From: Cenococcum geophilum | Taxonomy: Eukaryota | Direction: 5' to 3' | Assembly (NCBI GenBank): GCA_050273025.1 | Contig: CP158635.1 | Span: 4,154,001 to 4,218,000 of the forward strand | Length of the DNA stretch: 64,000 bases | Shown here: piece after piece, positions 12,326-64,000 of the stretch | How the letters are laid out: every line of letters begins with the position of its first letter | How positions within the stretch are numbered: position 1 is the first letter of the stretch | Position numbers and translations under genes: made by a program | Notes under the pieces: generated by a model | Databases searched by the model: none | What the model was told of the DNA's origin: nothing | The model's input: the letters and a program-made list of their open reading frames with translations, nothing else

Positions 12326-12456
12326 CAACTTTAAAAGCTAACTGTATATTTCTTAACGTGCGATTAAGGTAAAGTTATATACTATATATTTAACTATTAT
12401 ATATAATCTTATACAATCTTATACAATCTCATACAATCTTATAGTCTTATTACTTA

Positions 12457-12760: not shown

Positions 12761-12887
12761 GGGTCCCCGCTATATTCCCGATAGCCTCTACACGTGCCTC
12801 TACCCTATGTAGCTACCTTATTTTTTACCCTTCCTTCCTTCTTTATATCCTCCCTACCTAGGGAGGCACCAGAACGGCAGCCAGCAG

Positions 12888-13700: not shown

Positions 13701-13754
13701 TAGCCAGCCAATACTATAAACGATTTGATCGATTGATCGAATTAAGGTAGTATA

Positions 13755-14150
13755 GACAGGTAGGCATAAACAGGTAGATGCTGATGGGTAGGTAGATGTA
13801 GACAGGTAGGTAGATGTAGATAGGTAAGTAGATATAGATAGGCAGGTAGATGCAGATAGGTAAGTAGATGCAGATAGGCAAGCAGATGTAGATAGGTAGG
13901 TAGATGCTGACGGGTAGGTAGATATAGATAGGTAGGCAGATATAGACAAGTAGATATAAATAGGTAGGTAGATGCAAATAGGTAAGCAGATATAGATAGG
14001 TAGGTAGATGCTAACAGGTAGGTAAATATAGATAGGTAGGTAGATGTAGATAGGTAGGCAAATGTAGACAGGTAGATGTAGATAGGTAGGCGATGTAAAT
14101 AGGTAGGCGATGTAGGTAGGTAGGTAAGTTAATAGGTAGATAGGTAGAAG
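13755..14150. repeat. 18-bp purine-rich tandem array (gtagatgtagataggtag)
   Basis: Directly visible. It generates the repetitive ORF-track peptides at 13680-13977. Confidence 0.88.
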
Positions 14151-15322
14151 AGAACCATCGCTGTATTATATTAAATTATCTAAAATAATAATATTTATTT
14201 TACTAGCCTTATAAATAGCTTTAAAATAGCTTTTATTTATTTAAAATATATTATTAGTATAAAAGAGGTAAATATAATTATGGTTGCCAAATGCGCAGAT
14301 TACTGGCAGGTTGCGCGCAGGCTGTGTGTCAAAAAAACACGATATAGGCTAGTCGGTCGAGTTGCCAAATGCCCTCAACTGCGCGCTAATTGCGTCAACC
14401 ACCAACCATTGAGGCCATTGAAAGGGTACTATATTTTGCTGATGTTTCTCTTATACTATTTTTACTAATTCTATAAGGTCTATATAAAAATTTATTAATG
14501 TCTTTATTTTTTCTTTAGCTATACTACTCGTTTTCTTTACTTATTATAATAATAATAATATTCTTAGCTTATATCTATAATTTGCCTTAAATAGTAATAT
14601 GCCTATCCCTTCTTATAGTGTTGTATTATATATAAACTATATAACTAGTAATAATAATACCCAATTATTTTATGTATAATTAATATAGTATTTTAAATAC
14701 TGCTCTAGTATCTAATTTAATCTTTCTATTTAACCATCTATCTGCGGATAATATGCGGTAGAAGTTACTGCTCTTACTCCTTATTCCGCTAAAAATACCT
14801 CCTAAAATACTGCTATAAATCTTAAATCTCTATTTAATATAATCTTGCTTAGTGCTCCATATTTTATAAATACTTCTTTAATATAGATTCTAGCGATATC
14901 TTCTACTAATATTTCTTCTATATATGCTATAAAGTATCCCTACTTTATAAGCTTGTCTATTATTACTAAGATCGTATTATAATCTTATCTAGTAATAGGG
15001 TCTTTTAACTTAGGTAACTTAATAATAAAGTCCTATAATATAACCTTTTATAGTCTCTCTAGTATTTTAATAAGTTGTAGCCCTCTATATAGCTTATATC
15101 TTATTAGTTTATTTCTTTAGTAATCTAAATATTTTTTTATAACTTTCCGCGCTAAGCCCTAGATTCTATCAATAATATACTCTTTCTAGAGTCTTAATAC
15201 TAAGCCTATAGCTCTATTATGTCCTTAAGTTATTCCCTTATAGAAATCTTCTATAAAATACTCTACTATACTTCTTAGGATATACTATACTTCTCTATAT
15301 TTATATAGTATTTCTTCTCCTA

Positions 15323-30589: not shown

Positions 30590-32532
30590 TAAAGTCTACC
30601 CCCGGAACTCGGTTAACCCCCGAACTCGGTTACCTCACTAAATTGACTACTACCACTTTAAAAGCCAACTACACCCAACCAAATTAAATTGATTATTTGC
30701 CCTTATGTGCTATTTGGTATATTGACCTTCGCCTTTCTATCTATTACCTTTTAAGGCTTCGATTTTAGCTTCTTTACCCTTATTTTAGCCTTTTTCCCCT
30801 CTACCTTCTCTATTACTTACTTGATTAAGTATATATTGGTAAATTATATATTTAAATCTATAGCTACTTACTTATAAAGTTTTAGGCCTTTAAGGCCCTT
30901 AAGTTGTAATTGCAAGCAATATATTTAAGTGACCTTATATATAGCCCTTATAGGAAGTTGCTAAAGTTGTTAATCCTTTAATTAAGTATATACTTATTAT
31001 AAAGGCTTTAAACCACTTAATATATATAATAAGGCTTTTTAGGGTATCTATAGTGTTAAACTAATTACTGTTTGCTTATTTTTAGCCTATAAAAATATAA
31101 AGCTCTTATATAGATTTTATAAATAAATATTAAAGGTATATTATTTAATTTTAAAAAATTTTGCTTTTAGACTTTCTGTTTGTATCAATTTAATGATACA
31201 GGTAAGTTATATTCAGGGGCACGAAATACGTGTAGTATCGTATGCTCTTTTAGATGGTGGTGACTGTTAATTCTATTGAGGTAGACTACGTAGTCTATAT
31301 ACTAACGCGCCCTCCCCCCTAATTAGTTATAAGCAAGTAGTTGGTGCACCAAATGCGTAGACACGCGTTTGGTATACTAGGTGCTGTAATTATACACTTT
31401 CTTTTCCGGTCCTATATTAATATTTAAAAATATAATCCTTCTTAATTAAGGCTATGTTATTGAAATATATATACTTTATAATATAGTCCTAATATTATAA
31501 TTTTATAAAAGAAAAGTATAATAGATTTAAGTGTTACTATATTAAATAAAGTAGTAGAAAAATAAGTTATATATTATATTATTAATATTTTAATAAAAAT
31601 TTAATTATATAGTGGCTTATATAACTATTAAAGAATAATAATTAAGCTTTATTACTAAATAGTTTAGTTTTAGATAACAATATAGTAATAAATTACTTAA
31701 ATTTTATTTATTTATTTATTTAACTATTTTGTAAGGCTATATATACTTAATAAACCATTTTGCCCTAGTAGACTTACACTAATTAAAGGTGCTTTTATTT
31801 AAAGACTATAAGGAAATTAATTAATTAATTTAGAGTAAATATTATCCCTATAATAAACACTTATTTATAATTATTTAGTAATAATATAAAACTTTTCCTT
31901 TTAAAGGCATTTATTATAGTGATTAAGTTTATATATACACTTAATATAACTCTAAATTAATTTATATCTTAGGTATATTTCAATAATATATTAACTTTCC
32001 TTTATACTTATTTATAAAGGTTATAATATTTTTTAATTTACTTTAGTTGTGCCCAATTAACTTATATACTTTCTATTAAATAAATAAATAAATTTTTTAT
32101 TTAAAATAGCTAATTACCCACATTTTTCTAAGGGGCTTAGTATGGCTATTTTAATTAAAGATTTAGATTACTATTTTTTAATAATTATACATATAAGGGG
32201 GTAAATCTTTATAGATCCTGTTTAAGTACCCAATTAATAAGCAAGGCCCCCTATATAGGAGTTAATTGCTATTTATACTAGTGTATAAATTGTTATAGAA
32301 ACTTGCTATTTAATTAATCGCCTAAAATTAATAAAGGGACACTGTGTATAAGCATAGCTTTTCGCGCAGACTTATAAGCACCAGATTTAAAATCTACAAC
32401 AGCTATTTATAAACTCTACTTAGTTTGGTCTATATTGATGGGCTCGTGGAGAAAATAGGTCGGCAAGTCGGAGAGTTAATTTTGGTGTGGTGACCGTGTT
32501 CGGGAGGCGACCGAGTTCCAGGGGTCCGAGCT
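30590..32532 (-). mobile_element. Fot1/pogo-like DNA transposon, copy 1
   Basis: Right TIR ...ccaggggtccgagct|TA; the left TIR is partly eroded. Collinear with 34810-36774. Has an extra ~250 bp near 31180-31420. Confidence 0.8.
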
Positions 32533-32630
32533 TATGACCTATCAGACATAATATATGCCAGCGCTATTTGTCTCCAGGCTAACTTGGTATTAGTATGATA
32601 TCTCAAGCACCTGAAATATTCATCTTTGAT

Positions 32631-33785
32631 TCAGAAAACCAAACCGCCACCTAAAGAGTTAATTCCTGTCTCGCGTGTGTTCAAACAATGAGAATCGACT
32701 TACCATCCACCACAATATCTGCAGCATTGATATAGCTCCCTGCGCCAGAGCAAAGCAGTACTAATGGCCCAGTCAATTCCTGAGGCACGCCCATTCTTCC
32801 CATCGGGTTGCGGGAAGTCCATATGTTGCGGGCTTTTTCAAGTCCATGACCCTTATTTAGTATCGTATCCATATATCCTGGGCTGATAGTGTTCACCCGG
32901 ATACCGTAGCGCGCCCATTCAGCCGCAAGAGAGTTTTTGAGGCTTAACAGTGCGGATTTAGATACGTTGTAGGCCACTTGAGGCTGAGGAAAGTTTACAC
33001 GATGACCGGAAATTGCTGATAGATTGTCAGCAAATGTAACTAAAGCAAGAATAGGAAGCTGAAATGACGGACATGCTATGAACACTATGGAACCTCCGGT
33101 CTCCTGAGGTATCATTTGTCTGCACAATGGGTAGTTATTATTACAGTAACCAACAGAGGCAAAGGAGGGCGCACTTCGCAACTGCTTGGGCGCAGAGAAA
33201 GGACCCCGTGCAATTGATATCCATCGTGGACTTCCATTCCTCTAGGGCCATATCAGTTGCATGCGTACAGCCAACCACTCCAGCGAAGCAGCATAGTATA
33301 TCTACACTCCCAAGATGCTTGGCGGTTTCGGCAACGGCAGCATTGATACTTTCAGAATCTCTAACGTCTACCTGCTTCGTTATGATCTGGGCAGAAGGGA
33401 ATTCCGCTATTAGACTTGTAATGGGACCAGCAGCTTGTTGAGGATTGATATCGAGTAGAGCCAGCCCAGAGAGGCCATGTTCAAGGAGCGCACGAGCGCA
33501 TTCGAGTGCGAGAGTTCCGGCTCCACCAGTAACTGTGACGAGGTATTAGTAATTGGGGAGCCCCAAACTAGGACTACAATGTTCCGGGATATACCATCAC
33601 ATTTATCACGTACTAATTGCGTTCCCCTCGACCGCAAATCTATGCTGAGCCCTGCCCTCGGCATCCAGATAGTGTGGCGGTGGTGGGGGAGGGGCAGTAA
33701 AAGACGATGAGGAGCCGTCAGAGAGCTGCATTTGAGGGAGCTGCCTGTTGACAAGGGCATCGCGCTCGGAGGCGTTGTCAGGCAT
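32631..33785 (-). CDS. Short-chain dehydrogenase/reductase, D-arabinitol 2-dehydrogenase/sorbose reductase-like; 5 exons
   Basis: ATG at 33785, four GT-AG introns, Rossmann motif ITGGAGTLA, SISGHRVNFPQPQVAYNVSK (catalytic YxxxK), GIRVNTISPGYMDT, and a last exon GGGLVF-TGA ending at 32631. Normal base composition. Confidence 0.92.
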
Positions 33786-34809
33786 CGTTGAAGATAAGTT
33801 CGTGTTTGTTATTGGTGGTTTTTAGGTATGATCACTTGCAAGACTTAAAATGTAGTGACTGGAAGAGTGATCCTCTTAGCATAGAAGAAATATTGAGACG
33901 ATGTATGGAAAGCTCTTAAAAAGAGCTTTGGACCATTGTATGTAGGAATAAAGGAAATCTAACCTGAGCATCGCTGTCGTGATTTGGTGATAACTTTCAG
34001 GAAGCAAGTTAGCCGAGAATCTCGATTTAGGAAATATTTGGTATTCAAGGCCAGTCAGCTAAAAAGTCACATGTTCAGCCAGCCACCTGGCACATATTCG
34101 CGTATATCTATAGCGCCACTAGCGCCAAGCTATAGATGTACGTATATTAAAGACCACCTACTAATTAAGCCGCTACTTAACGCTAACCATAAAGTAATTA
34201 GGGCTATTAGGGCCTAAAGTATATATAAAAACGTTCTTTTTACTTAATCCTTAATTATAGTAATATATTTACTATTATACCTACTATATAAAACAGCGCT
34301 AACTAACTATATAGAGATTAATATCGCTAATAATACTAAATTATATATTAACGTATAGTATATCCTTATCCTTATATATACTACTAGGCCTAAGAATATA
34401 TCTTTAGTATATAACTTAAAGTAAAAGGGGGTTAAAATAAAAAGAATATAATATTTACCCTTTCCCTTTTCACCTAAAAGCATTACGCCCTATAGCTAAT
34501 ATATTGTTTAGCTTTAGGCCTTTTATAAATAGAAGCAGTATTATAATAGTAATACTATTATAGAAGATAAGTTACTTTTCTTTTTTTATTAAAAAGGTTG
34601 TAAATTAGCCCTTAAAAGGAAAGAGCTATAAAGCTAATAATAATATACCTTAAAAGCAGACGTATTTCTTATAGCAGTTATTTTATTGCTATATTACTAC
34701 TTTAATAGACCTTTATTAAATATAAAAAGCTATAAAAATAAATAGCTACCTATTTTTATAGGAGGATAGTATTAGAAAGTATTTAAAGATACTATAGTAG
34801 AGGGATATA

Positions 34810-36774: not shown

Positions 36775-38708
36775 TATAGTATAAGAAAAAGTTTGCTAAT
36801 AAGGGTAGAGATACCCTCCTTAATAGCTATACTAAGAATAACTTTTAAGGCGTTTACTATAAGCTTTAAGCTAAAGGCACTATTCTATCCCTAAAGTACT
36901 ACTTTTATACGCTTATTAATATCCTATTAAGCTATTATATACTTACCTATAGTAGTAATAAATACTTTACTAAGATCTTAGATTTATTTACCTTTAAGTT
37001 TAAGGGTAAAGGCCTTACGCGCTATATACCCTTAATATTTACTATATGCGTAAATAAGTAGAACTAGTAAAACTACCTTAAAACTATTAAAGCCTTATAA
37101 AATAAAATGCCACTTATTTATATACTTAGTAAGCTAGCTTTCTATTTCCTATACTACTAGGATTTTAGTATTAAGCTATTTTTAGACTTTAATAAGTACT
37201 TAGTATAATATAATATATATTAAAATAAAAGTAGTACTAAGAACTATAAGGTGGTCCTTTTATATAACTTATAGTAGGATTAAATTATAAAGGCTTTTTA
37301 ATATATTGGTGTCTTTTTAAGAAAGAAGACCTCTATTAGGCAGAGCGCTAATATTAAAAATAGTAGAGCTAAAGGGGGTTAGTAAAGACTAGATTTAATA
37401 TATTAAAGGTAAAATTAAAAGTATATAGTAGGCTATTACTTAAACTCTCTCCTATAAGAGTTTATAAAGTTAATAATAAAATACCCTTTATAGATAGGCT
37501 ATTTTAAAATCTACTATATAGGTATTACGCCGCCTAATATACTACTGTTAATAAGATTGCCTAAACTAGATAAATAGAAGAGCTATTTTAGTTTAAAGCT
37601 ATATTAAATCAATAGCCTTACTACTATAGGGGTTATAAACCTTCTCTTTTACCTTTATAAGGTTATTCTATAAGACCTAATAGCCCTTTATAAAATATTC
37701 TTAAGCTATTTAGTAAAAAGCTATCCTATTTTTAGTATAAAGTATATACGGCCTTTATATAGAAGCTAAAGCCCTACCTCTAGAAAAAGAGGGAAGCCTA
37801 AATTAGCTATTAATTCTTTACTAGGCTATATTACTTCTTATTAACTAATTAAAGGCTCTATATTAAAAATAAGTAGATATCTAGCGATATTAAAGGCTTA
37901 TTAGACTATTTAGATAGGTCCTAATTGGCTTAGTCTTTATAGCTTTAGTTACTAATATTTAAAGACCTTATATTTTAACTAAATGCCCCTTTAGCTATAG
38001 TGGCGGCAATAGTATAGCCTTAGGGCTAGTTTACTAACACCTTATATCCGCCTATAAAAGCGGCCCCTTTAGCTCTATCTATTATGGGATTTAGTAAATA
38101 TATATCTACCTAAGTAAGCGCTATAAGCTCTCCTTTCTATATAGCTTTACTACTACTATTACTACTACCGCTATAGCTATAGCTAGAGCCGCAGTTCTAG
38201 CTAGAGCCTAGGTTTAGGTTTCTACCTATATATTATATAAGCCGCGTAATAAACTCTATATAGGCCCTTTAATATAAGTAGACTAAAGGGCTACGAGGTA
38301 ATCCTTTTATAGTAGCGCTAGATTCTAAATAGGGTAGTAAATAATAGGCTAGCTAGTAAAAGGAGGTCTAATAATACTCCCTATAGCTTAAGGTTATTAA
38401 GGAGATTAAATAGGTCGCGTAAGCCTAGAAGGTTAGCAAGGAAGCAGCTATATAGTAGGTTAATTTACGGTAAAAGCAGATATTATACTTACTAAATTGG
38501 TGTCACGGGACATTATCAACGCATTCTTACGGTATTGCGAGGAGATCAATTGGCTATTTTGTTGGTAGTACTATCTCATTTACGAGTATCTATGCTACAG
38601 GAATTACAAGGGCTATCCAGATGTCCGCTAGAACCTAGATATCCGAATATTATCTCCACACCCAATATGCTGTATATCAAACTATCGATCTGCCTTAAAA
38701 TGCTCTTG

Positions 38709-40505
38709 CTATAATTCCCCATCGTAATCATCATCGTCATCATCATCGTCATTCCACGGCGGCGACGGTGGTATACTGTAATCGTCCAAGCTTTCCGGCA
38801 CCATCTGACTTGCTGTCACTATTCCTGCTCCTGTTCTTTTTGAAGATGGTGACTCGGCACTTGTAATTCCTCTCAAGATATTCGGCGAAGATAAAAACGA
38901 AGGTAGAGATGAGGGTATAGTCAGAGGTGGGGGTCTAGATGGAGATACGGGCAGTTGGAGGGCGGAGTGATGGGCGTTGTGAGGCGAGGGCTGCGTAGAG
39001 TCTACGGTTGTCGCTTGAGATAGATGCGAAGATTGTGTTGGAATGGAGTTAGAGTCCTGGATTCGCTGGCCACTTTGCTCAAGGTGAGATATTCGAAAGT
39101 TAGGAGGTTGGCGGGTGTTTTGGCGTTGAGTGTAAGATTCAAGCTCGGTTTGTAGTTGGGCTGCTGCCTCTTCGGTTCCTGTCCCTATACTGTCTTGACT
39201 TTCTTCGGATTGTGATGCGTGCATAATAGCTTGAAATGATTTGAACTGGATGTAAGTCGGTTGGCCTGTTTCTCGTAGCTTGGATTGCCACTGTTCGTTT
39301 TTCTGCTGGAACTGATGCGAGATCAGGGCCTCAGATGGTCTCAAATCATTCTCAGTAATACGTCCCCCATCTTCGACATTTTCGTTTAGACCATCCATAG
39401 GATCGGTATTAGTACGGGCAGGGTCGATCTGATTGGTGGCCACATGTGCTTCATCTCCAATGGCATGGTTGTTGGTATCGGTGTCTTCGTCATCACTTCC
39501 TAATTCCTCCTCTTCGTCCGAGTCTTGAATAGTGCTTTTAAAAATTCGATGGAGCGGTGTTGGTGAAAAACCTGTTCGTTCTCCCTTGACTACTTTAATT
39601 GTTTGTAGAACCAACTTTCTTATAGCCGGGTTGCTAGTAGCAGCGATGCGGCCTTTCGAAGGCGAATCTAACAGGCCTTGGGGATTTGGGGATCTTTCTT
39701 CAAGCGGATATCGACTATGGCGTTCGGTAGATTTCTGGGTTGATAGTGGAGATTCTGGAGGAGATTGAGAAGATGGAATCTCTAGCAAACGTCGTCTAGG
39801 GGGGGTTTTTGGATTTTCTGTTTTTACTTTGGTAGAGCGACGTAACGAAGCTACATGATTTGAAAGATGGTGCGCTTGAGTCTCCTGGTTTGTAATCCAC
39901 TCGTGCAAATGCTCAAGTGTTCCCGGGTGCTGATGCACTGGAGATTTTGGAGGGCTTCTCTCATGAGATGGCTTGTGAATGCCATGCCCTGCAAGACGTT
40001 GTTCAATAGCAAGTGTGTATCCATTATCATCATTGTCATCTTCGTCCTCATCATCGGAAGCCATTAGTGTAGGCATAAGTCCATGCGTCATCTGCGTGAG
40101 AGTCTGTTGCCACTTCTCCTCCGTTTTCATATTTCCCCGTCTCCTCTTCAGTGCAAGAATCTTCCGATTATCTTCGTAGCCAGGCGTTGGCCAAACTCCA
40201 TGTATCATTTGGGTGAGAGTCTGCTGTCGCTTTTCATCTGAGGACCCCGGCTCATCCGACTCAACCTCTGATTCAAAGTCTCCTACCTCTTCATGCTCTC
40301 CTCTCTTTCTTTTCGATGAAGATAATGTGGCCACATACCCAGCCTGTGTCATGGTCTGCTGTCTCTCCACGGAGGTGGGGGTAGACTGAGGCATCGTCTT
40401 CTTGGTTTTGCGTCGCATTGGAAAATATGTCTGTCCTAGGCGTGGTTCTGAGTAGTGAACGATTTCTGGCTTCCTCTGGGATCGTGGTTTGCTGCGGGGA
40501 GGCAT
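38709..40505 (-). CDS. Hypothetical 598-aa low-complexity, likely disordered protein with three QQT[LM]TQ motifs
   Basis: Single long ORF in non-RIPed DNA, with basic NLS-like clusters (KRKR, KRRR), acidic tracts and an S/P/Q-rich C-terminus. No catalytic domain recognised. Confidence 0.85.
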   Translation of the reverse strand: MPPRSKPRSQRKPEIVHYSEPRLGQTYFPMRRKTKKTMPQSTPTSVERQQTMTQAGYVATLSSSKRKRGEHEEVGDFESEVESDEPGSSDEKRQQTLTQMIHGVWPTPGYEDNRKILALKRRRGNMKTEEKWQQTLTQMTHGLMPTLMASDDEDEDDNDDNGYTLAIEQRLAGHGIHKPSHERSPPKSPVHQHPGTLEHLHEWITNQETQAHHLSNHVASLRRSTKVKTENPKTPPRRRLLEIPSSQSPPESPLSTQKSTERHSRYPLEERSPNPQGLLDSPSKGRIAATSNPAIRKLVLQTIKVVKGERTGFSPTPLHRIFKSTIQDSDEEEELGSDDEDTDTNNHAIGDEAHVATNQIDPARTNTDPMDGLNENVEDGGRITENDLRPSEALISHQFQQKNEQWQSKLRETGQPTYIQFKSFQAIMHASQSEESQDSIGTGTEEAAAQLQTELESYTQRQNTRQPPNFRISHLEQSGQRIQDSNSIPTQSSHLSQATTVDSTQPSPHNAHHSALQLPVSPSRPPPLTIPSSLPSFLSSPNILRGITSAESPSSKRTGAGIVTASQMVPESLDDYSIPPSPPWNDDDDDDDDYDGEL

Positions 40506-49600: not shown

Positions 49601-52600
49601 TTATCTCTACATTTAACCATCTCCGCATTGCAAAAGGGGATAAATGGCTTACTATATTTTGTACCCGATATAGACTATTTAAATACTTAGTAATATCCTT
49701 TAGCCTTATAAACGCTCCAAGCTCGTTTTAACATTATATAAATAATACCCTACACCCCTACCTGGATATCTTCTATACTGCTTATATTAACGACATCCTA
49801 ATATATAGTAATAACCTAACTAAATATCGGAAATACGTTAACCTTATTCTATAAGCCCTATACGGAGCTAGTCTATAGTTAGATATAAATAAATGCGAGT
49901 TTTATAAAACTTCCGTTTTATACCTTAGACTCCTTATTTTTATAAATAGTATATAAATAGATCTGAAAAAAGTCAAAGTAATTATAAACTGGCAAGAACC
50001 CAAGAATATTAAGGACGTAAGAGCCTTTATAGGATTTGCTAATTTCTACTAACAGTTTATTAATAACTTCTCCGCCCTAGTTTTACCCCTTATAGCTCTA
50101 ACCCAAAAGGATAAAGTCTTTATCTTTAATAAGGAATATAAAAAGGCCTTTGCCTATCTAAAGGTTATATTTACTACTACGCCTATACTTTAATACTTTA
50201 ACCTAAACCGAATAAGTGTTATAGAAGCCGACTTATTGTTACGAACGCTTTAAGTACAATGTTACGACTACTAGGGGAAGAGTCGGAAGAAGCTAGTTGG
50301 TTAATTTAGGCACGGTTTAGGATAGAGCCGATAGAACTATGTGATGAGGAATAGTAACTAAAGGTTATATAACGTAATCTATATAATCTATATAATCTAT
50401 ATAATCCGCGATAGAGTAGATAAAGCACACGTATATTACGTATAAAGAGGATTTTATAGGAGTACGGTTGTGTATTTAAGGACCCTTAATCCCTACCTAG
50501 ATAGTTCCTTCTTTGTAGTAATTCTTAGAATATAATTAAAGTTAATCTATTAGGCAACTACTCTACCAGTTATTATTACGTTATTAACTTTAATTTATAT
50601 TACCTATATACCTAGCCTAATAATAAGCCTACCGTAGTACCTGCTATAAGGTTCCGTTATATAATTACTACCTAGTTATAGTATTAAATATAAAAAGTTA
50701 AATAACATGCTACTAAAAGCAGCCACTATAACGCTATTAACGGCGGCAACTACTTTAAGGTTAGGAGGTAACACTAGTATAGCAGATACTAATTTATAGC
50801 AACCTATAATAGTTAGATAACTATAAGAAATAGTTAACTAGCTAATAATAAATAATGCGGCACTAAAAAAAAGGATTAATAGGATAGGAGCGGCAAAGAT
50901 TAAACTACTATTAATTAAGAGGTACTTAGGAGAAAGGTTAAAGCTTAAGGGATTCCTTACGTAAATGCACTTTAAAGATACGCAGGAAGGAGCGAAGCTG
51001 CTAATACCTATAGATTAAATAGTGTATATAGGACTATTCCTATTAGGAAGAGCACTTAAGTAGTTTAAGCTTTACCTTACGAAAATACAGGTAAATGAAA
51101 TAATAACCACTAATTAGGAGGTGCGATTTATATTCTTAAGCTAGGAAGGGTTTATAAAGTAACTTATATAAATATTTAGAGACCTAAAGGCAGTAACTAT
51201 AGCGGAAAGAAAACTCTAAGATATTACGCAACGAACCTTAGTAATTAAGTATATAATATAGTTCTAGACGCTAGTAATATAAGTTAAGTGGAATAATAGG
51301 GCGCTTATAGTATAGTATAAATAAGAACTTAAGGCTAAAGTCTAGGACGTAATTATCTTAATAGAAGATATGGACACCCTAAGAGGGCTAATAGATTAAG
51401 CAATTAAGATTAATAATTGGATCTATTAAAGGGAATAGGCCAAGAGAGGTTAGGATAGAGTTTTATAGTTATATAAGGCGTAAAATACGCAATAACTAAA
51501 GCTAAGTTAAAAACTATAGTATAGCGCAGAGCTAATAGACCTAAGTGGTACTAAAGAAGCCTATAAGAGATAGAGTAAGAAACTATAAAAACCTAAAGAT
51601 TAAGGATCTAGTAATTACAGGACTAAGGAGTAGAGGCTAAACTAGGAATCTTAGTAGTAGAAGACGTTTAGGCGGACTCTATAGTAAAGTTAATGGTTTA
51701 AAGATAGAGCTTATATAAATTGCGGAAAATAAGGTTACTTCGCGAGGGATTATAAAGATGGTTAGAGTTACTATACAATAAAGGGAACTAGACTAGTAAA
51801 AGATATATATATATAGAGGGATAATAGTATACTACGAGGAATAACAGAGTGTTTAATTAGAAGTTTCGCGTTTTATTATAATAACGCATACTAAATTTAT
51901 AAAGATGCTAAGTATAGCGTAAGCTATTAGCTATAAGAGCTAAAATCCTTAATATATAAAGGAACTAATAAACCAGTTTATAGATCGGACATTAAGGATA
52001 ATAAATTTAATATAGGTGAAATATTTAGTAATAATAAGGTAATAAGAGTAACTTACTAGAAGTATACGGACCTTAAAGATATTATAAGAGAGGTAGAGGA
52101 TAATTCTACTATAAAATAGGGAACATTAGTAGGGATTAAGACCCTACTAGACACGATGTCTATTGCTTCGCAAGACGTAAGAGAAGTAGGACAGCGAGCT
52201 ACTTCGGCACTCGATAAAGGCAAAAGGCTAAAGACTTAAGATTTTTAAGACGAGATAAGGCATACCCAAGGACCTATAATGGACGAAAACCAATAGAGTA
52301 GGGCAGTAGCTTAGTTTAAGGATATATAAATAAGCTTGGGATAGAGTTTCCTATAAGTATAAGACTCTTAAGATAAGATAAGAACACTTAAGTCTAGTTG
52401 GACTAAGGTAGGAGCTAAGCTTAAGACAGAAGCAAGCTTAGGATTAAGAATTCTATAGAATTAAGAATTTCAGATATAAATGAGGACTATTAAGTAAACC
52501 AAGATTAAGAAGCAAGAAGACTTTAAGGATCTACTTATAAGGCGAAAACTAAAGGAAACCATGACCGAATTTAGAGTAAGAATTATTATATAGTAATAAC

Positions 52601-54650
52601 AGAAGTTAGACTAGAGGACTAATACACTAGGATATTCTAAGGATAAAGTACCTATACGAAGAATTACTAATAGGCCTAAAGTAGGTATACTAAAAGCTAA
52701 GTAGCTTACTAAACTAGAGAATAAGGAGGATTTAGGGATTCTAACTAGGTTTAAGGAACGACATACTAAAGGATATTACGATATAGTAATAAGAAGATAC
52801 TTCCTTACGGACGAGCCGTATATACTCTAGCAGATATACTAAAAGTAGTATAGGTAAAGGCATAACGATAAGTAGGAAGATTTCTATATATAGTTAGATA
52901 AGAAAGTTATCTAAGACCACCCTATTACGGAAAAGGTAATGAGTTATATTAAAGGGGCCTTAATTATAACATTAAAGGATCTAGAGGAGCGTTTAGAGGA
53001 CTAGAGAAGCGAAAGGCATATCTTAGTACCTACGAATAAGGTTATAACGTTTAGATTAATACAGTAGAGGTTTAAACTTAAGGATAAAGACGAGCTAAAA
53101 GTTAACCTAAAACACTAAGTATATTATATATTAGTATGGATTATATATATAGATAATATATATAATATGCATAGAGCACCTAAGGATAAGTACTAAAAAT
53201 ACCCTATAAGAATATATTGGATAGTAGAAGAATAGAAGTATAGAAATGCTAAGTATATATATAGCTAGCACCCAATAGAAGTTTAGGAGTTAGGTAACTT
53301 AATACTTTAGTTAAAAAGATTCCTTACGGAAGAATACCTAGATGGATAATAGTAATAGGAATGCCTAGAGAACACGTGTCTGTAGTATATTAAAGAAAAG
53401 AAGCGAACTAAGTATTAGCTAAAAGTAGACTAAGTATAAATAGGATTAAGCAGCTAATAATTGGGAAAAGTAGAGGCCTATAGGACTAGAGGGAACTAGT
53501 AGTAGAGCCTTAAACCCTTAAAGGAATTTAAGGACAATACCTAAACCTATAAGTTAAATAGTAAGATTAACAGTTTGAAGTATTAATAGATAGTAGAGCA
53601 ATAAGAAACTATATCTTACTATTAGCAGTTAAAAGAATGGGATTACCACACAAGAAAAAAAAGCACCCTTACCTATTAGTAATAATTTTAGGAGATCCAA
53701 TAGCCTACGGAGGAGGTATTATTAACCTTAAAATAGGACCTATTTAGCTAACCATTAAAGGGAGACAAATTAAGATATCTTTTAATATATTACTATTAGG
53801 GAACAATAAGGCAGTATTAGGAATGCCTTAGTTATAGGAATATAACTTAAGGATTAATTAGGTTACGGGTTAGGTCAATATTAGGGATACTTAATAACGC
53901 AAGATATAATAATAAGCCAAGTTAGTATAGTACTAAGTAGGAGCAACCTATAAAGAAACAGAGAAAGGACTAAGCTATATACTAAAGAGATATTATAAGT
54001 ACGGTAAGAAACTATAGTCACTAGAAAGTAAAAGGCTGTTAGAATATATAGTATAGGATTATAAAATAGAATTAGAACTAGGAATAAGTCTAAGGTTCTT
54101 TCTAATCTATAAGCTTACTAAGGACAAAGGAAGAGCACTAAAAGAGTTTATCTAGGAGAACTTACAAAAGGGATATATTAGACCATTATAGTTATTAGTA
54201 GGTTACCCAGTACTATTTATACTAAAAAAGAACGGTAAACTAAGGCTATATATTAACTATAGATAGTTAAACAGCATTACTAGAAAGGATAGGTATCCTT
54301 TACCCTTAATTAGCGAAATCTAAGATAGGATAGGCAATGCGTAAATCTTTATAAAGATAGATCTAAGGTAGGCGTACTATTAGATTAGAATTAAGGAAGG
54401 CGACGAATAGAAGGCAGCCTTTAAGTTAAAGGAAGAACTATATAAACTATTAGTTATGCAATTTAGGCTTATAAATGCGCTAGCAACATTCTAGAAGCGT
54501 ATTAATAATATATTAGGAGAATACTTAGATAAATTTATTATAGTATATTTTAATAATATTATTATCTACTTAATAACTAAGGAAGAATACGGAGAATATA
54601 TTAAATAGGTCTTAAAGAGACTATAAGAGGAACAGATATTAGTAGCAATT

Positions 54651-57600
54651 ATTATTATTTATTACTTAACGTCCGATTTGGATCCCTATTGGGCCCACGC
54701 GGACTACTCCTTATATACATATAGGGAGAAAACTCTATTTAAGAAAACTCCGTAATCCATCTTCCCGCCTTTTAGGACTCGCCTATAGGCCGCCTATAAG
54801 GCGCCTGCGAGTTACCTATAGTGCTCTACTACCTTACTTTTTAACCTTTTTAGGAACCACTACTGCTGTAATAAGCCTACGGACGCGCTAGTATTGCAAA
54901 CTTTACTCTACTACTATAGAGTTATTAGGGGGCGCCCGTTACTCGCCTCTCCCGCCCTTTATTACTATTTCCTTTATAACCCAGAACTGGTTTAGTATAT
55001 TTTAGCTAATAAGCTACTAGGTAACCGCCTTAAGGCCTTTTTATATCGAGAGTAGTGTATTATAGTTCTCTATGCTAGCTACTAAGAGTATTACTTCTTA
55101 GTTGGTGTGTAAGGGGCATAATAGTATTATATATTTTGGTGTCTGTCTTAGCCAGCTATATTCGCATCTTAGGCTACCTACTAGGATACCTACCTAGTAG
55201 AGCCAGTCTTTTAGTCCTATTATTCCTGTTCTTAAGAGTGTTGCTATTATATTTTCTACCTTTATTAGGCCTTCTTAGAGCCCTAAAGTATTTACCCCCT
55301 ATAGCGTTAACCATGCTACGGCTTGGGTTCCTCTTGCCTTAGTTAGCCTCTATACCTTCAACTCCTATACGCCTCTCCAGCGTTAGTCTAGCTAGTATTG
55401 TATTATAGTAGATAGTTTCCTAGTATTCTTTTGTGTTCTACTTTTACTCCTTTCTCTCTCTTACTATTATCTTTACTGGCCTCTTACGCGTTTCCCTTCC
55501 TCCTCTATATAGGCCTGGGCCCTAAAGCAGCACTATTTTTCTTCTGCTTTCTTTACCTGTTTCTTTAATATATCTTCCCTACTTTAGGGTTATTGGTTTG
55601 TTTTCCTATAGGGCGCCCTAGGGTCCCTCTATAGTTTATTTAGGCGTGTTTTAATATACTTTATAATATTAGAGTTACGTTTGTTTTACGCCCTTTATAT
55701 TATAGCGGCTTTAATATATAGTTATAGGGGGGGAATATTAGCTTCCTTTTTAAGCAGTGCTGTAGCCGTTCGCTTATATCTACCTATTATACTCTAGAGG
55801 TAAGCTATTTGGACCTTTTAGAGTAGTTTAAGGAGTGATTTAGGGGGGCCTTTCTTAGATTCTCTAATGGCCCAAATATTGGACCTATACGTTATAGTTG
55901 GCCAAACAACTGCTGTATATAGTAGGCGTAACCTCTAAAAGTATGGACCCTATATAGAATTAACAATCCTGGATAATGCGATATACTATACTTAGCTCTT
56001 ATAGGCCGCTTACGCCGTATATACGCTCTACCGGAGCTTACTGTCTACCTATACTCCTAATACCCTTAAACCCTAAACTGGTTAACCCCTAAAGCCTTAG
56101 ATATGGATTATATGCTAAAGATCTATAGATTAGTTACGTTTTCTTATAAAGTAGATTAGCTGGTATTTCTTTAGTAAGAATTAGACTCTATATTGTCTTG
56201 CCTATTCTATATAGGTATTATAAGCTTTCTCTAGTGTTCTATAATTTTCTATGGCTGTTAGCCTATATATAATTAGGTTTATATCGTTAATAAAGCCTAT
56301 CCCCTAGGTCGCCCCTTCCTTAAAGGAGTTAAGTAGGTTGCTTATAAAGAAAAGGAAGAGTATAGGCAAGAGGGGTAATCCTTATAGTATTCCTGTTGTA
56401 ACTATAATAGGGGGGCTCTGGTATCTGCTAAAGACTAGTAATATTTCTTTCTAACCTATAAACCCTTAAATAAATTATATAATCTATTCTAGGAAGCCTT
56501 TTACCCTAAAGATATATAGGAGACGCTTATAGGATATATTATTATAGGCGCCGCTAATATCTAGGCTAAGCATTAATACTATAAAGTCCCTTCGCATCGC
56601 CTATGCGGATTTAATAGTGGTAGCGAGTAGCGTAAGTGCTAATAGTGTTAAGCGGTTCTTTCTTGCCCCTATTTAGCTTTGTAGTAGTAGGTTATATTCC
56701 TTAGCCGTGTCTACTATATAGTCCGCTATTACCTTTTCTAAGATCTTGCTAAGGGTGTTTTTTAAGGTAATAGGGCGGTAGCTTTCTAGGATTAAGTAAT
56801 CTGCTTTACCTTCTTTCCGTAAAATAACCGTTGTTATAGCTCTTCTAAGTCGCGTGTAGTAGCCTATAGTAAAGTATACCCTAGCTATATCTATAAGCTA
56901 GGGTGCTATAAGTAGTCTATATATTTTTAAGGCCTTATTTAGAATCCTATCTAGTCCTAGTGCTATATTGTTTAAAAGGCGGCTAATAGTTCTAGCTATT
57001 TCCTCTATTGTTATGTCGCTGTTGACCCTTAGGTGAGTTACCGGTGTTTTACCTATAATGTCGCTGAGGTCTGCTAGAGTTGGTTAGGGGAAGAACCTTT
57101 CTATAAGGATCTTTGCCTTTTTATTGTTGTTGTTAGTGGCCTGTAATTCCCCTGCTCTTTATAGGGGTAGTAGGTATAGGTCTTTTGCTAGGCGCCCTGC
57201 CTTTTTTTTTTTTTACCTATTTTGCTATAGCCCAAAGGCCCTTATTATAGGGGAGGCTTGGGTTAGAAGTATGCTCGTTTATAAACTATCTCCAGTTATT
57301 CCTTACTTCTTTCTTTAGGGTATTCTTTAACTGGTTTCTTGTGTCTTTATATCGTCTCTTGTCTTTAGGGTTATGGCTACTTATATATTTCCTTCTTGCT
57401 TATTATTAGCTAGTAATAAGAACTACGCATTATACGGACTATGCGTGTCGCGTATAGGGGCCCAGTTTTAAGACCGGGCAGTGCTCTTCTAGCCCGTTTT
57501 TAATTGCTGCCTAGATCCTTTCTAGTCTTTAGTTAATTTCCTTAGGGGTGGCTAATAAGCCTCGCTCGTTTAGAATTGGGTGGATTTCTTCTAGGTCTTA

Positions 57601-59610
57601 GAGTTATTATTTAACTATATTAAGGAAACTGTCTATCTTAAGCTTCCTTATTACATATCTTTTACTACTTAGTTGCGCCTTAATATCTAAATCTAGCTAT
57701 ATCTGGATGGGGATATGGTCTAAGGCGAGTGCCTATTCTTCTTTGGGGTTATACCTTTCGAGTCTCTAGTATAGGCCTTCGTCCATAAATATAAGGTTAA
57801 TTGTGCTATATAATAGAGTTTAATATACCTACTTATCTAGGCCTCTACCCTAGTTTTTTAGTATTTGTTTTAATACCTAGGCCTAAAGGCCTAGGGGCTT
57901 TCTATAAGCAGTTAGCTGCCACCACCTTAACAGGGGGTCTTACCAGTTCTTTTGGATATCTTATAATAGGATTGGCCTAAATACCAGTCCGCCCCCCCAC
58001 GGTCTATATAAAAGTCTCCTCCTAGAGTTAATACGCTTTTGTATAGCTTAGGAGCCTTCTATAGCCTCTAGTTTCACACCTTTTCTATTATTTCCGCTGG
58101 TATAGGCATAAGCTGCCTTTTCTAGGGGTTATAACTCCCGTCTTATATACCTATTAGCGTAATCCTATAAAGGTGTCGTAGCTGCATCCTGTAATATAGA
58201 AGCCTTAGGTACCTTCTATAGTTAAGGCCCAGACTAAAAAGCCTCCCCTACCTAAGTAACTCCTATTTACTCCTTAAGCATATCTTATTAGCGTACCGCC
58301 CTAGAAGCAAACAAACGGTTCCGTCTGTTAATGTACCAATACGCGTATCCGTTCTCTTAAGCCACGTAGTAGTCTTCTTCGGCTAGGATGTAATTCTACC
58401 TGCCTATTAGGTGCACTAGGGGTTAGAGCTTAGCTAAGGGGTAAGGTCCCTAAAGCCAGTAGTAGCTACTATGTACTTCGCCCTATAGGAGACTAGCAGT
58501 AATATAGGGGCGTAATACCCTATACACCACTAGCTCCCGTTTCGCGATGCCTATAAAAGTCTCCTTATAATAGGCCGACCGTGTTTTATAGGAGGGGTTT
58601 ATAGATACTAGGTCCCGCGCCAGGCGACCTGCTCTGCCCTCTCCTACTAACTAAGCTTGTGTCCCCCCTTTTTATAAGACTATCAAGTCCTCGTCCAACT
58701 GGCCTATATTTCCCCTACAGCCTCCCCTATATATATACGTATCGGGTTACATACACTACGCCTATTAAGACCCTCCTATAAGTCGCCTTAGACGTATATA
58801 TATTAGGTTGCGTGCACTACGCCTATTAAGACCCTCCTGTAAGTCACCTGCGAGTCACCTATAAGTCGCCTGCGAGTTAAACGCCATAGGGCCGTTAAAG
58901 CTGGCCTATGTTTCCGCTGCCTAGAGCTTTGCCCGTGTTTCCACCTCGTTAAGCCGTCTAGTCGCCATCGCGTTGCTATCGCGTCGCTGTCAACCAGGTC
59001 GCGCGCACTACGCCTATTAAGACCCTCTTCTAAGTTACCTAGGTGTACCGGTATACTAGATAGGCCCTTAGAGGGGCCTTAATAAGTTCTTTAGGCAGGG
59101 CCTTAACAAGTTCTTCGCGGTGGCCTTTAGGGCCTTAATAAGTTTCGTATAAGGTATCTGCGACGCGTTAATTAATAAGTTCTTATAAAAAAGGGTTCCC
59201 TACGCCCTTACTATATCCATTCGGTCTTAGAGCTAGTATAAGCCTAAGGGTGTCCTATTATACGCCTAGGACGTATCCGCATCCGCTAGCTTAATAAGGC
59301 CAGTTTCGGCCCTAGCTATAAGCTAGGTAGACGTACATTAAGTAGTTTTTATATCCCAGTTTCCCTTAATAGGCCTCCCTAGATGGTAGAACGGGAGCTC
59401 TAAGCGGAGGCAGTAAGGCTCCTAGTGTTATTAAGGGCGATGCTTTAAACGCGTCGCCGGCTCAACACCACAGAGTCGCAACGACAGCGCGCTGCACGCG
59501 CTGCGACGGCTCTCTACCATCGCCTCTGCACTTGGCCATTAAAAGGAACGGATTCCAGATGATGTTTCCACCCGCGGCGACGTGGACGCGTGCAGTAGGG
59601 CTTCGCGGGC
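54651..59610 (-). mobile_element. Chimeric non-LTR insertion: 5'-truncated Tad1-like LINE (54651-57807) plus 1.8 kb foreign 5' segment (57808-59610)
   Basis: TSD attagtagcaatt(a) at 54638-54650 and 59611-59623. The LINE part is the reverse complement of ~4487-7630. Short (TAA)n tail. Confidence 0.9.
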
Positions 59611-61764
59611 ATTAGTAGCAATTAAGAAATACAAGTTCTTTACCAGAAAGACCAATTTTATAGGATTTATTATTAAACTAGGCTAACTTAGTATAGATCT
59701 AAAGAAGATTAAGGATATAGTAAATTGGTAAGAACTAGAAAACGTTATATAATTAAGATCGTTTTTAGGGGTTTATAATTACTATAAAAGGTTTATAGTA
59801 TAATAGTTAAAGGATATTAAACCATTTACACGGTTAATAAAGAAAGAAGAACTATAGGTATAGGGAAAGGAATAAAGAGAGTTATTTAAAAAAGTTAAAG
59901 AATTGTTTACCTAGGAGCTAGTTCTTAAGATCTATTAACTAGGGCTAGAAACGGTTGTAGAAATAAATATATTAGACTATACGCTAGGGGTATACTTTAT
60001 ATAAAAGTATCTAGATAGATGGCACCTAGTAGTATATTACAGTTAGAAGATAATACTACTAAAGTTAAACTATAACATTTACAATAAGGAGCTATTAGGT
60101 ATAGTTATAGCATTAAAGAAATAGAGAGTATTTTTATAAGGTATAGAGAAACTATTTATAGTTAAAATAGATTATAAAAACCTAATAGGATTCCTAACGA
60201 TAAAGGAACTTAACTAAAGATAGGTTAGATAGGTAGAGATACTTACAGAATACTATTTCAAGATTTAGTATACTAAGGGTATAGATAATACATAAGCAGA
60301 TACTCTAAGTCGAAAAGCTAAACTATAAAACGATAAAAAGCCATTAGGGGCTTTACTGCGAAAAGACATAGACGGGTTAATTAGGTACAATTATCTAAAA
60401 ATTATAGCCACTTAAAAAGAATTAAAAAGGGTTTATAAGTCACCAGAGAGCTTTTAGGCATAAAGAATCTTTAAAACACAACTAGAGGAGCAGTTGGAGC
60501 ACCTAGGAGAAGAAATACTGTATAAATATTAAGAAGTAAAGTATATCCTAAGAAGTATAGCGGAATACTTTATAGAAGATTTTTATAAGGGAATAACTTA
60601 AGGATATAATAGAGCTAGAGGCCTAGTGTTAAGACTCTAGGAGGAGTACATTATTAATAGAATTTGGGGCTTAGCGTAAAAAGTTATAAAAGAATATCTA
60701 GATTGCTAAAAAAAATAAACTAATAAGGTACAAGCTATACGGAGGGCTATAACCTATTAAAATACTAGAAAGACTATAGGAAGTTATATTATAGGACTTT
60801 ATTATTAAGTTACTAAAGTTAAGAAACCCTATTACTAGATAAGATTATAATATAATCTTAGTAATAATAGACAAGCTTACGAAGTGGGGATACTTTATAG
60901 TATATACAGAAGAAATATCAGTAAAGGATATCGCTAGAATCTATATTAAAGAAGTATTTATAAGATATAGAGCACTAAGTAAAATTATATTAGACAGAGA
61001 CCTAAGATTTATAGCAGTATTTTAGGAAGTATTTTTAGCGGAATAAGGAGTTAGAGTAGTAACTTTTACCATATACTATCTGCAGATAGATAGTTAAATA
61101 GAAAGACTAAATTAGACACTAGAATAGTATCTAAGATATTATATTAATTACGTATAGAATAATTAGGTATTACTATTACTAGTTATATAGTTTATATATA
61201 ATATAATACTATAAGAAGAAATAGGCACGTTACTATTTAAAGCAAATTACGGGTATAAGCTAAAAATATTATTATTACTAAGGCAAGCGAAGAAAACAAG
61301 TAGCATAGCTAAAAAAAAGAATAAAGACGTTAATAAATCTTTATATAGACCTTATAAAATTAGTAAAAGTAGTATAAAAAAAAATAAAAAGGTACTATAA
61401 TATTAAGAGATCTAAGGGACTAGATCTTAAGGAGGAAGATAAAGTATAGCTACTATATAAAAATTTTAAGAGTTAATAACTAAGTAAAAAGTTAGACTAC
61501 GTTAGACTAGGACCCTTTAAAATTATATAAAGGATTTCACTAGTTATATTTAAGTTAAACCTATTAGCTAAAATAAAGATCTACCCTATATAGTATATTA
61601 TAATACTAAAGCTAGTATATAGGAATATTAAGCTACTAGTTTACGAAGCGGATATATATAGAGGATAAGAAGAGGACAAATAGTAAGTTTTAAGGATTGT
61701 TAACTATAAGGATATTAATAATAAAATATAGTACGAGGTTAAGTAGATAGGCTATAATAAGACT

Positions 61765-62469
61765 ACCTAGGAGCTATTAGAAAATTTAAAAAACGCTATA
61801 GGAAAGGTACAGGAGTATTAAAAGAAATTAGGTTAGGCAGTATTAATAAAAAAGGATTGCTAAAAAATAAGTTACCTAAGGGGGACCTAAGAAGAGTAGT
61901 TGCCGAACTACTTAAATCTATTTCCTTCTCGGTTAGAAGAGAATTTATTCTTTTATTACTAAGCTCTTATAGACCTTATTCTATAAGCTTCTATTTTTTT
62001 AAAATAGACCTTTTTATAAGCCTTTTTAAGACGAATTAACCGAGCAGACGCCGCTAAACGAGATTTAAGGGCCTGTTGCTAAGTATTAGCAGCCTCCCGT
62101 TTAGCGTCCTAAAAATAACGCAACTCTGCTAGAATAACAGATAGTTTATTATCTAGCCGCGTAGCAGTAGATTAAATATAAAACCCTAAGACAAATTAAC
62201 TAGGGAACTAGACGACTGTTAAGAGTAATAGGTTATGTATATTTAGTATTAGAGATAAAACAAACGTTATAGGACGAATAAATATTCGCTTTAGTGCACT
62301 TTAAGTAAGAGGACGGTTATTGCGAAGATGGGTTTACTAACGTAATACTAACTAACTTCTTTTTTAAATAGCGAGAATATGGAGATAGTATAATCTCACT
62401 AAGGGATAATATTATAGCAATAGTGCGAATACAACGAGCAGTTAAAGAAGAAGAAATTGCTTTAGGTAT
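61765..62469 (-). pseudogene. Antisense two-exon ORF of Gypsy A copy 3
   Basis: Homologous to 15856-16540, with a 21-nt in-frame insertion in the coiled-coil part. Confidence 0.6.
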
Positions 62470-64000
62470 AATAAGCAATAATATTAACTAAATTAATTAG
62501 ATAGATATTACACCTCTAGTAAATAACTTAGAGATAATTAGGATCTTTAAGGATAAAAATAAAGAGAAGGGAGATAGTATTATAAACGCTTTAAGTACAA
62601 TATTATAACTACTAGGGAAAGAGTTAGAAGAAGCTAGTTAGTTAATTTAGGCATAGTCTAGAATAGAGCTAATAGAACTATATAACGAGGAATAGTAACT
62701 AAAGGTTATATAACGTAATCTATATAATCTATAGGATCTATATAATCCGCGATAGAGTAAATAGAGTACACGTATATTATATATAAAGAGGATTTTATAG
62801 GAGTATGGTTATATATTTAAGGACCCTTAATCCCTACCTAGATAGTTTCTTCTTTATAGTAATTTTTAGAATACAATTAGAGTTAATTTATTAGGCAACT
62901 ACTCCACTAGTTATTATTACGTTGTTAACTTTAATTTATATTACCTATATACCTAGCCTAATAACGAGCCTACTATAGTACCTGCTATAAGGTTTAGTTA
63001 TACTTATCTAACTATATTACTAAAGGCATTCTGTCTTAATATAACGAGGATAGAGTATTATACCCTATAGTATACTTCTTAAAACGACTAAGCCTAGCTA
63101 AATATAACTACGAGATTTATAATAAGGAATTATTAGCTATTATTAGATGTTTTAAATAATGGCGACCCAAACTAGAAGGCGCTGAATTTCTAATTAAGGT
63201 CCTTAGCGACTATAAGAACCTATAGTACTTCATAACTATAAAATAGCTAAGTTATCGTTAGGCCCGCTGGTTGGAATATCTATCTTATTTCTAATTTTTA
63301 ATTATATACCGCCTAGGCGTCTAAGGTTAGAAGCCTAATACCTTAACCTAACGCTCGTAAGACGCGCTAGCCCTAGAAGAAGCGCGCTCTTACCGAAATT
63401 AGACCCTACTTTACCCTAAACTATTTAACCCTCCTACTAAAGATCTTATAGTACACATCCTTAAAATAACTAATTAATTAATTAAATAGATTATAGTTAA
63501 CAAATACCCAAATAATAAGTTTATTTAAGAGATACTTAAGCTAATATAAGATAGTATTAAACGCTCTAAAAAGATTTCTCTAAGTAAATATAAAGCCTAT
63601 AGAAACCGCTTATATTACCAAAACTGTTTAGTTATCCCTAATTATAATAAGCTTAAGCTTAAACTCCTTAAACATATATACGATTTACCTGTCGCTAGTT
63701 ACCTAGGCTAAGGAAAGACCCTAAAACTACTCTAACGGGAGTATTATTGGCCGAATATATATAATATAATATAAAGGCATATCTCTAGCTACTATATCTA
63801 CTAATAAGCTAAAGCCTCGCATAAGGCGTATAACGGTCTTTTAAAGCCATTACCTGTTCTAGACCGAAGATAGAAGGATATCTTAATCGACTTTATTATT
63901 AACCTTTCTAAAAGTAGAGGCTGCACGAACATTATAGTAGTTATAGACCGACTATCTAAAATAAGACACTTAATCGCCTACCCTAATATATTAACACCTG

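Follow-up and report, generated by a model that had tools for sequence, protein, structure and literature searches.

The closest described counterpart of the locus analysed here is MINE (WEIRD-MGL) of Magnaporthe, in which a donor-less non-coding RNA recurs before truncated LINEs, a situation unexplained since 2005-2007. According to the available portion of its description, MINE carries a complete non-coding 5' module on LINE or SINE tails truncated to varying extents, all within one target-site duplication (TSD), and is further characterized by three-part chimeras, the absence of solo copies, junction sites that recur and, at the junction, a G before two pyrimidines (PMC2104539). All of these features are shared by the element studied here, which we name X. 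The X chimera has the MINE/WEIRD architecture, and it is by this architecture, from the published description alone, that X and a second family, X2, are likened to WEIRD. However, the two systems differ as well: in the available portion of the MINE paper no ribozyme or structure is described for WEIRD (PMC2104539), and a search for literature linking WEIRD or MINE to a ribozyme found none. Unlike MINE, the X system comprises at least five partners of LINE/SINE type, two passenger families, a partner of mRNA type and a core that is shared with viruses.

Other known systems resemble parts of X. HDV-like ribozymes occur at the 5' ends of non-LTR elements, for example R2 and L1Tc (PMC3185411, in the part at hand), and fungal HDV variants are known (PMC5640933, likewise in part). 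The U6/LINE-1 chimeras share with X a non-coding RNA whose fixed 3' end stands on variably truncated LINEs and on other cellular RNAs. U6, however, comes from a host gene whose locus is known, and its junctions, in the accessible sections of that study, show no preference for L1 sequence (PMC6789731), whereas X has no solo locus in our sample and a strong junction motif.

Chimeras of this type and HDV ribozymes at 5' ends are already known, while the newly seen feature is a covarying core shared with viruses. As the viral literature was examined from the IRES side only, the viral core may have been described already. The core is a large structured RNA outside Rfam, common to mobile DNA and at least two kinds of RNA virus, with a cut site predicted to the base, and the X family may offer a testable answer to the MINE/WEIRD question, since both ends would be encoded in the RNA's own folds. 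If the core is a ribozyme, it would represent a new large catalytic class and a new viral route to downstream gene expression. If the joining proposed below is true as well, a natural trans-splicing route would exist that hijacks the tails of other elements and could truncate host mRNAs.

The chimeric locus and its copies

The window (the whole stretch of 64,000 nucleotides that was analysed) is a RIP-mutated repeat region of fungal type. Copies of one LTR-retrotransposon-like repeat are nested in both orientations at 10275-28640 and 50234-63002, and the chimera sits inside one of them. The window also contains a full-length RIPed LINE of the partner family (2079-7651, plus strand; 16-bp TSD in the region 2063-2078 / 7646-7661), at whose 5' end no HDV-like fold was recognized by eye. 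Two RIP-free islands with a GC content of 46-49% (32500-34000 and 38500-40500) possibly represent host genes between repeats, and a partly GC-rich tandem-repeat cluster with several unit lengths lies at 11945-14148.

An earlier note, made from the sequence alone, had claimed that LINE homology stops at 57807 and that the 1.8 kb up to the second TSD copy at 59611 arrived in the same event. Comparison with the full-length LINE reproduced this border, which corresponds to LINE position ~4487. The 14-mer ATTAGTAGCAATTA stands identically at both ends of the composite (Table 1) and is present only once in uninterrupted copies of the host repeat, from which it follows that X and the LINE piece arrived together. 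It is thus confirmed that X and the 5'-truncated LINE are enclosed by one 14-bp TSD. The LINE partner, read through together with X, yielded an RVT_1 match (E 7.7e-12) at about 56055-56810. X gave no BLASTN match to the 5' half of the LINE, and RIP marks cover most of its length, both as the note had described; they are fewer in the first 200 nt.

Table 1. Features of the X-LINE chimera (window coordinates)
Feature	Position	Strand	Remarks
Target-site duplication, LINE-tail end, 14 bp	54638..54651	.	Identical to 59611-59624; single in uninterrupted host repeat
5'-truncated LINE partner, RIP-inactivated	54652..57807	-	86.5% identical to window 4492-7651
LINE partner content: end of endonuclease region, RT, 3' UTR, short ATT-type tail	54652..57807	-	
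Passenger element X, 1803 nt, non-coding, multicopy	57808..59610	-	
3'-terminal stem region of X	57808..57849	-	
Optional ~300-nt domain, approximate limits	57871..58211	-	Alignment; X lengths 1437-1890
Conserved structured core, ~400 nt, predicted large ribozyme	58256..58668	-	Common to X2 and RNA-virus intergenic regions
Variable middle region of X, short internal repeats	58758..59113	-	
HDV-like ribozyme fold, X 5' end	59526..59610	-	Descriptor, pair counts, sub-threshold Rfam HDV, compensatory P2 change in relatives
Target-site duplication, adjoining X first base	59611..59624	.	Identical to 54638-54651

The window copy of X is a RIP-damaged fossil. Several conserved positions of its core are RIP-mutated, and its last 8 nt are missing, among them the end of the 3' strand of the closing helix and the terminal G. 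Only 2 of 113 sampled 3' ends stop 8 nt short of the fixed end in this way, the window copy being one of them, and its own junction lacks the G|CY sequence described below.

A DNA search with X delivered 554 candidates, 40 of which were scored, and 28 of the 30 loci examined span X from end to end. The end patterns of X matched 260 (5') and 425 (3') times in the genome (reversed controls: 0), in line with the expectation that X or its donor is multicopy. The first base is G in 75/75 copies matching the 5' pattern, which itself demands that G, while the upstream flanks are unrelated; the copies thus share one 5' end. At the other side, 111/113 sampled 3' ends share one motif and close with a purine, which is G in 62 and A, in a TpG RIP context, in 49; the fixed end reads ...CCUG. 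Among 20 loci taken at 8 kb, 18 show a TSD of 11-16 bp around X plus the partner tail. None of 72 full-length copies stands alone (L009 was flagged by chance, but its LINE partner was mapped). These copies represent 36 lineages, the largest of which comprises 15 near-identical copies with 15 different junctions. Of the patterns that the earlier note had envisioned, copies alone, one fixed junction or different junctions, it is the last that we observe, with 97 distinct mapped sites.

Changes in RIP context were fixed within a lineage in 5/109, 4/101, 7/100, 1/93 and 11/99 cases, and changes outside RIP context in 14/725, 30/743, 29/754, 20/739 and 34/725. Since RIP-context changes are rarely fixed within a lineage, the source templates were largely un-RIPed. 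Folding of the whole-length alignment after RIP-aware recoding was uninformative, with only 3 compensatory transversions. The lineages differ by frame-breaking indels and in their middle region, where a ~30-nt unit (three times in the window copy) and a 13-nt unit (at least twice) vary in copy number; three-way junctions were predicted by eye for the ~30-nt units. The optional ~300-nt domain is missing in short X lineages, which still form chimeras. A hairpin of this domain (L033:1680-1720), absent from the short lineages, resembles the 11-nt receptor of a GAAA tetraloop and stands beside a GAAA-capped hairpin.

Two alternatives that the note itself had named did not hold. X is not a later insertion, as no TIR, LTR or TSD of its own was found. 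Neither does it correspond to an ORF1 region from a second LINE subfamily, for which a frame with gag/zinc knuckle and a constant join to ORF2 would be expected: stop codons common to all 28 aligned copies are present in all six frames, a Pfam search of six read-through frames gave no match, and the junctions vary.

Part of X is present in 18 of the 24 listed sequencing runs (8 on record as RNA; 0.45-0.51 of its words shared), and five runs under the same species label (X20-X24) carry next to none of its words, which may reflect a difference in strain, lineage or library. In one raw-read run, of which 12% was read, the depth over X is about 1-110, mostly on the sense strand under the usual library convention, and numerous C>T and G>A differences are seen in the reads, as in genomic copies. 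No pile-up of read ends at G1 or at the 3' G was seen at a depth of about 4-10. These data bear on the idea that LINE reverse transcriptases (RTs) capture a viroid- or retrozyme-like RNA replicon, circular or multimeric, of which X would be one monomer. Such an origin would suit the 36 lineages with un-RIPed founders among 72 copies, the lack of a solo genomic donor and the absence from the five same-species runs. However, the terminal-repeat ribozymes, head-to-tail units and circles of retrozymes and viroid-like RNAs were not encountered in X, although the RNA test for circles is weak. Head-to-tail or circular X junctions had 0 matches in the genome, no end-to-start joint was among the 15 of 40 joints that were listed, and neither a hammerhead core nor an antisense HDV fold was found in X. 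Furthermore, the reads carry the same changes as the genomic copies, and the un-RIPed contigs described below end in partner RNA instead of the start of X. We thus consider a replicon origin highly improbable.

Folds at the two ends of X

The first 85 nt of X fit an HDV-like double pseudoknot whose predicted cut lies 5' of the G at 59610, which is the first base of X and directly abuts the TSD. P1 (59604-59610/59570-59576) comprises 7 bp with a G.U at pair 1; P2, P3 (3 bp), P1.1 and P4 are present as well, in nested double-pseudoknot order, and the predicted catalytic C of J4/2 (59535, X position 76) is invariant in 25 aligned copies. An HDV descriptor, written after the motif had been seen, matched 15/15 copies at position 1 only, 0/60 shuffles and never the antisense strand. 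The pairs hold in 97.5% of cells with three compensatory pairs, all in P4; that covariation within the genome is scarce is due to the nearly invariant core of the fold. In two divergent relatives (L133, L165) a P2 pair changed in a compensatory manner and P4 is replaced. The best hit of the Rfam HDV models reached 31.8 bits (E 0.015), below the gathering threshold of 44, and one search gave none. Minimum-energy folding of the 5' end did no better than that of shuffles (z 0.7 to -1.8), which a pseudoknot would lead one to expect. The fold is very probably real. It resembles those of R2 and L1Tc in P1-P4 plus P1.1 and in a predicted cut at the element's first base, while in contrast to these, as documented in the part of the paper at hand, it heads a non-coding passenger without a tail of its own (PMC3185411). 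With its G.U at pair 1, it follows the general HDV consensus and not the fungal loop-E variant, as far as the latter's available description goes (PMC5640933).

Toward the 3' end, X contains a ~400-nt core that is common to X, X2, L133 and L165. RNAalifold predicted 99 pairs, 36 of them compensatory. In a selection of 62 pairs, 97.9% of cells are paired with 26 compensatory pairs, which is reached by 0/500 shuffles, while slid registers pair 42% at most; the structure was derived from the tested alignment itself, which comprises 7 sequences of 4 types. In a blind helix search, the 10 nt after the core paired best with the last bases of the element, ending at the terminal G, in 4/4 X-type and 2/2 X2 sequences. 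A P9.0-like helix precedes the terminal G, and P3- and P8-like helices are present. However, the Rfam families, including the group I and GIR1 models, gave no match to the core (RF00028: nothing at E<=10), no covarying candidate for the canonical G-binding helix P7 of group I was found, and P4-P6 in canonical order was not found either, which counts against the reading preferred here. Some words of the core appear to resemble the group I subgroup IE; a search with an IE motif led to no intron in the genome or the viral contigs and to no printed consensus in the papers. Compared with group I reverse splicing, in the available portions of the respective papers, the core shares the terminal G beside a short helix and a P3-like long-range helix followed by a P8-like hairpin (PMC3679873, PMC3699495). 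It differs in that P4-P6 and P7 are missing in canonical order and a U before the site is not required. Unlike group I reverse splicing, X shows the 3' join only and never full insertion.

X2, the second passenger family, is about 1.1 kb long and was found in 149 candidates (L232-L261, e.g., G000:C2:23588376-23591907), as well as inside L036. It has the same 3' core and ends in ...UCCUGG, with the terminal G in 27/27 ends under a pattern that allowed G or A, but its A-rich 5' end is different, lacks the HDV fold and has no match in Rfam. Its length is close to that of WEIRD.

A metagenome scan delivered 121 loci, nearly all of them RIPed genomic copies. L133 and L165, in turn, are whole contigs of one assembly, divergent (L133 is about 72% identical to L033) and without obvious RIP. 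They begin 9 and 8 nt, respectively, inside the 5' end, end canonically in ...CCUG|CC and look like transcript contigs, judging from their sequence. L133 runs on into a zinc knuckle. In L165 (1400-1497), the canonical end of the un-RIPed X relative is joined to the coding sequence of a tyrosinase (PF00264, E 1.1e-7), a fusion represented by this one contig, whose source molecule may be RNA or DNA.

The core in RNA-virus contigs

A word from the core led to three viral contigs (L270-L272) in which the motifs of the core recur in order, together with a compact form of its fold. Another scan brought up 54 loci, and of these 34 distinct contigs (among L393-L446) carry the core. It is located after an RdRP_2 ORF (sub-cutoff matches in L345, L404 and L442) and before the next ORF, which matches Mycovirus_RNAse in L345 and L272, the one indication of a host. 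At least two RdRp types are represented, and the P3-like helix covaries among the contigs. Scans with X-specific words gave 0 viral matches, and in two looser viral scans most matches were due to chance. Phage records gave no match, and 3 single-word matches in prokaryote genomes were chance as well.

In the viruses, the last base of the closing helix, 57-58 nt beyond the core, is a G (34/34), which is followed by C (33/34) or, over two bases, by CY (31/34); the site was scored in a 10-nt window picked after three cases, the scoring favours G and leaves the base after it unscored, and the contigs are related. When searched for blindly over a wider range, the site came out in only 10 of the 28 contigs that have a GDD motif upstream. 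The viral G followed by C is the counterpart of the G|CY junctions of X. The third base after the G, where GIR1 would have its branch-point U, is U in 22, C in 7 and A in 5 of the 34 contigs. A C follows the site and a pyrimidine stands two bases further in 29/34, which is also a likeness to GIR1 as given in the accessible part of its description (PMC3679873). GIR1 and twin-ribozyme introns, according to the same portion, share with the core a large structured RNA directly upstream of an ORF or 3' RNA and a site at the end of a 3' helix (PMC3679873). The core differs from GIR1 in that the Rfam model is unmatched, an rDNA intron context is missing and P7 was not identified and, unlike GIR1, it occurs in RNA viruses and in retro-chimeras. 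The cut of GIR1 lies before a C and yields an mRNA 5' end (PMC3679873, in part), and in mycoviruses subgenomic RNAs are produced by small ribozymes (PMC13725137, in part). By analogy with both, we propose a cut by the core at G|C. That the core cleaves RNA is probable, though well short of certain.

The position between the RdRp ORF and the next ORF is, on the other hand, where the type 6 IRESs of dicistroviruses sit. The core might accordingly be a virus-derived IRES whose closing helix sets the start site, with the 3' end of X arising through a ribosome-linked cut or protection. However, the frame of G|C relative to the downstream ORF disagrees between L270 and L272, and the first AUG follows 12-33 nt downstream of the site in all 34 contigs, a non-AUG in-frame start not being found. 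X junctions fall at codon positions 1-3 in 5, 15 and 7 cases, nothing beyond what the T|CY motif would give, and reading-frame selection at the junctions was rejected on the same counts. Rfam IRES models had no match, and 'flexi' and 'tymovir' are absent from the available parts of two surveys of type 6 IRESs (PMC13273307, PMC12221177). An IRES is thus improbable.

Junctions, partners and the route of joining

X is a non-coding passenger ahead of the truncated tails of many retrotransposons. It is joined to the LINE of the window, to other LINE families whose tails differ, to an ORF1-only relative and to SINE-like elements, and also to X itself and to X2; at least five partners are of LINE/SINE type, and three-part chimeras (X-X-LINE and X-X2-LINE) are present. 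All identifiable genomic partners are retroelements. The earlier note had suggested a passenger RNA that uses the machinery of this LINE. The passenger nature stands, while the tie to this particular LINE does not, as several LINE/SINE-like families and X's own RNA are used.

The junction set comprises 148 X junctions, 112 from this genome and 36 from metagenome contigs, of which 125 were mapped to intact partners at 97 distinct sites. Nine sites recur across lineages; in three groups, the members are duplicates of a single chimera. The partner starts with C in 75/97 sites, followed by C or U in 87/97. The partner base replaced by the G of X is U in 47, C in 23, A in 18 and G in 9 sites, and the base before it is a purine in 71/97. 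Part of the preference therefore lies in partner sequence that is left uncopied. For X2, C comes next in 17/24 sites, and U at the replaced position shows no enrichment (6/24). A pyrimidine at -1 is found in 70/97 (X) versus 7/24 (X2) sites (p=2e-4), and because this upstream preference differs between X and X2, the choice of junction seems to be set by the element and not by a host nuclease. At the place of the junction, a tyrosinase homologue in this genome, which is 60% identical and not itself the source, has GAT|CCT, in keeping with the motif.

Template switching by the LINE RT, as put forward in the earlier note, remains one candidate, while the junction sequences and the virus-shared core fit joining at the RNA level at least as well. 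In its present form, the LINE RT would jump from a broken partner RNA to the 3' end of X, guided by pairing over 1-2 nt, with the ends of X being made by ribozymes. Such a jump has been proposed for MINE together with a GCC consensus at WEIRD junctions (PMC2104539, in part). It is in agreement with identifiable genomic partners that are all LINE-mobilised RNAs, with the three-part chimeras and with partners that mostly start with CC, a preference that microhomology to 3'-CC or CCA ends would produce as well. However, G is depleted under the terminal G of X (9/97, p=0.001), and joining by microhomology to this G is contradicted by a replaced base that is U in 47/97 and G in only 9/97 sites. The A excess at +3 expected of a CCA end is absent for X (21/97), on which ground CCA-end joining was rejected. 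The preferences in the uncopied part of the partner, which differ between X and X2, and the existence of a tyrosinase partner (one contig) argue against the jump too. We hold it to be unlikely.

A host RNA ligase of the tRNA-ligase type could instead join the cleaved 3' end of X to 5'-OH fragments, as RtcB does for U6/L1. RNA-level ligation has been shown for U6/L1 and works with other cellular RNAs (PMC6789731, in part), and an mRNA partner would be allowed. Yet in the accessible sections of that paper the U6/L1 junctions show no specific L1 sequence (PMC6789731), whereas the X motif is strong and family-specific and agrees with the base that follows the G of the viral homologues. Ligation by such an enzyme seems to us of low probability. 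The reading that we prefer, trans-splicing by the core, has its own difficulty in that a U at -1, where group I introns dock, occurs in only about half of the X sites (47/97) and is not enriched for X2; one candidate guide, a G-run near the 3' end, was rejected, as lineages with a G-to-A change there show an unchanged preference.

Under trans-splicing by the core, a genomic X-partner copy would be transcribed, and sense reads do exist. The HDV-like fold would cut before G1, as the fold and its exact border suggest, and the ~400-nt core would cut after the terminal G, at G|C, and free unit-length X, a step suggested by where the closing helix lies in X, in X2 and in the viruses. In the reverse reaction, the G of X might be joined to another RNA at a CY site with loss of the partner's 5' part, consistent with the junction preferences and the mRNA-type partner. 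Where the partner has a LINE-type 3' tail, the LINE machinery, for which TPRT is the established mechanism, would copy the chimera to DNA with a TSD, the product being observed in the genome; only partners with such a tail would enter it. A solo donor gene would not be needed, since the junction recreates G|CY and any young chimera could act as a new source. The full chain of 5' cut by the HDV-like fold, 3' cut and grafting by the core, and LINE retrotransposition has, in our judgement, a nearly even chance of being correct. More tentatively, and with the balance tipping somewhat to the doubtful side, the core might represent an undescribed class of large self-cleaving ribozymes with which RNA viruses release downstream mRNAs. 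By combining it with an HDV fold, a fungal non-coding RNA would have become a retroelement without a tail, able to excise itself from whatever transcript contains it and to trans-splice its 3' G to RNAs of LINEs, SINEs and the cell, whose 3' ends it would use for its own retrotransposition; WEIRD would be of the same kind.

Some partners deserve separate mention. A SINE-like non-coding family of ~1 kb with the 3' tail of the LINE is the partner of X in L006, L007, L017, L018, L021 and L038, and an ORF1-only relative of an RNase H-type LINE, with the same poly(A) 3' end, follows X in L027, L040, L046 and L050. On the LINE of the window, hot spots of junctions lie at 2474 and 5040 (LINE positions 397 and 2963), each being used in three X lineages.
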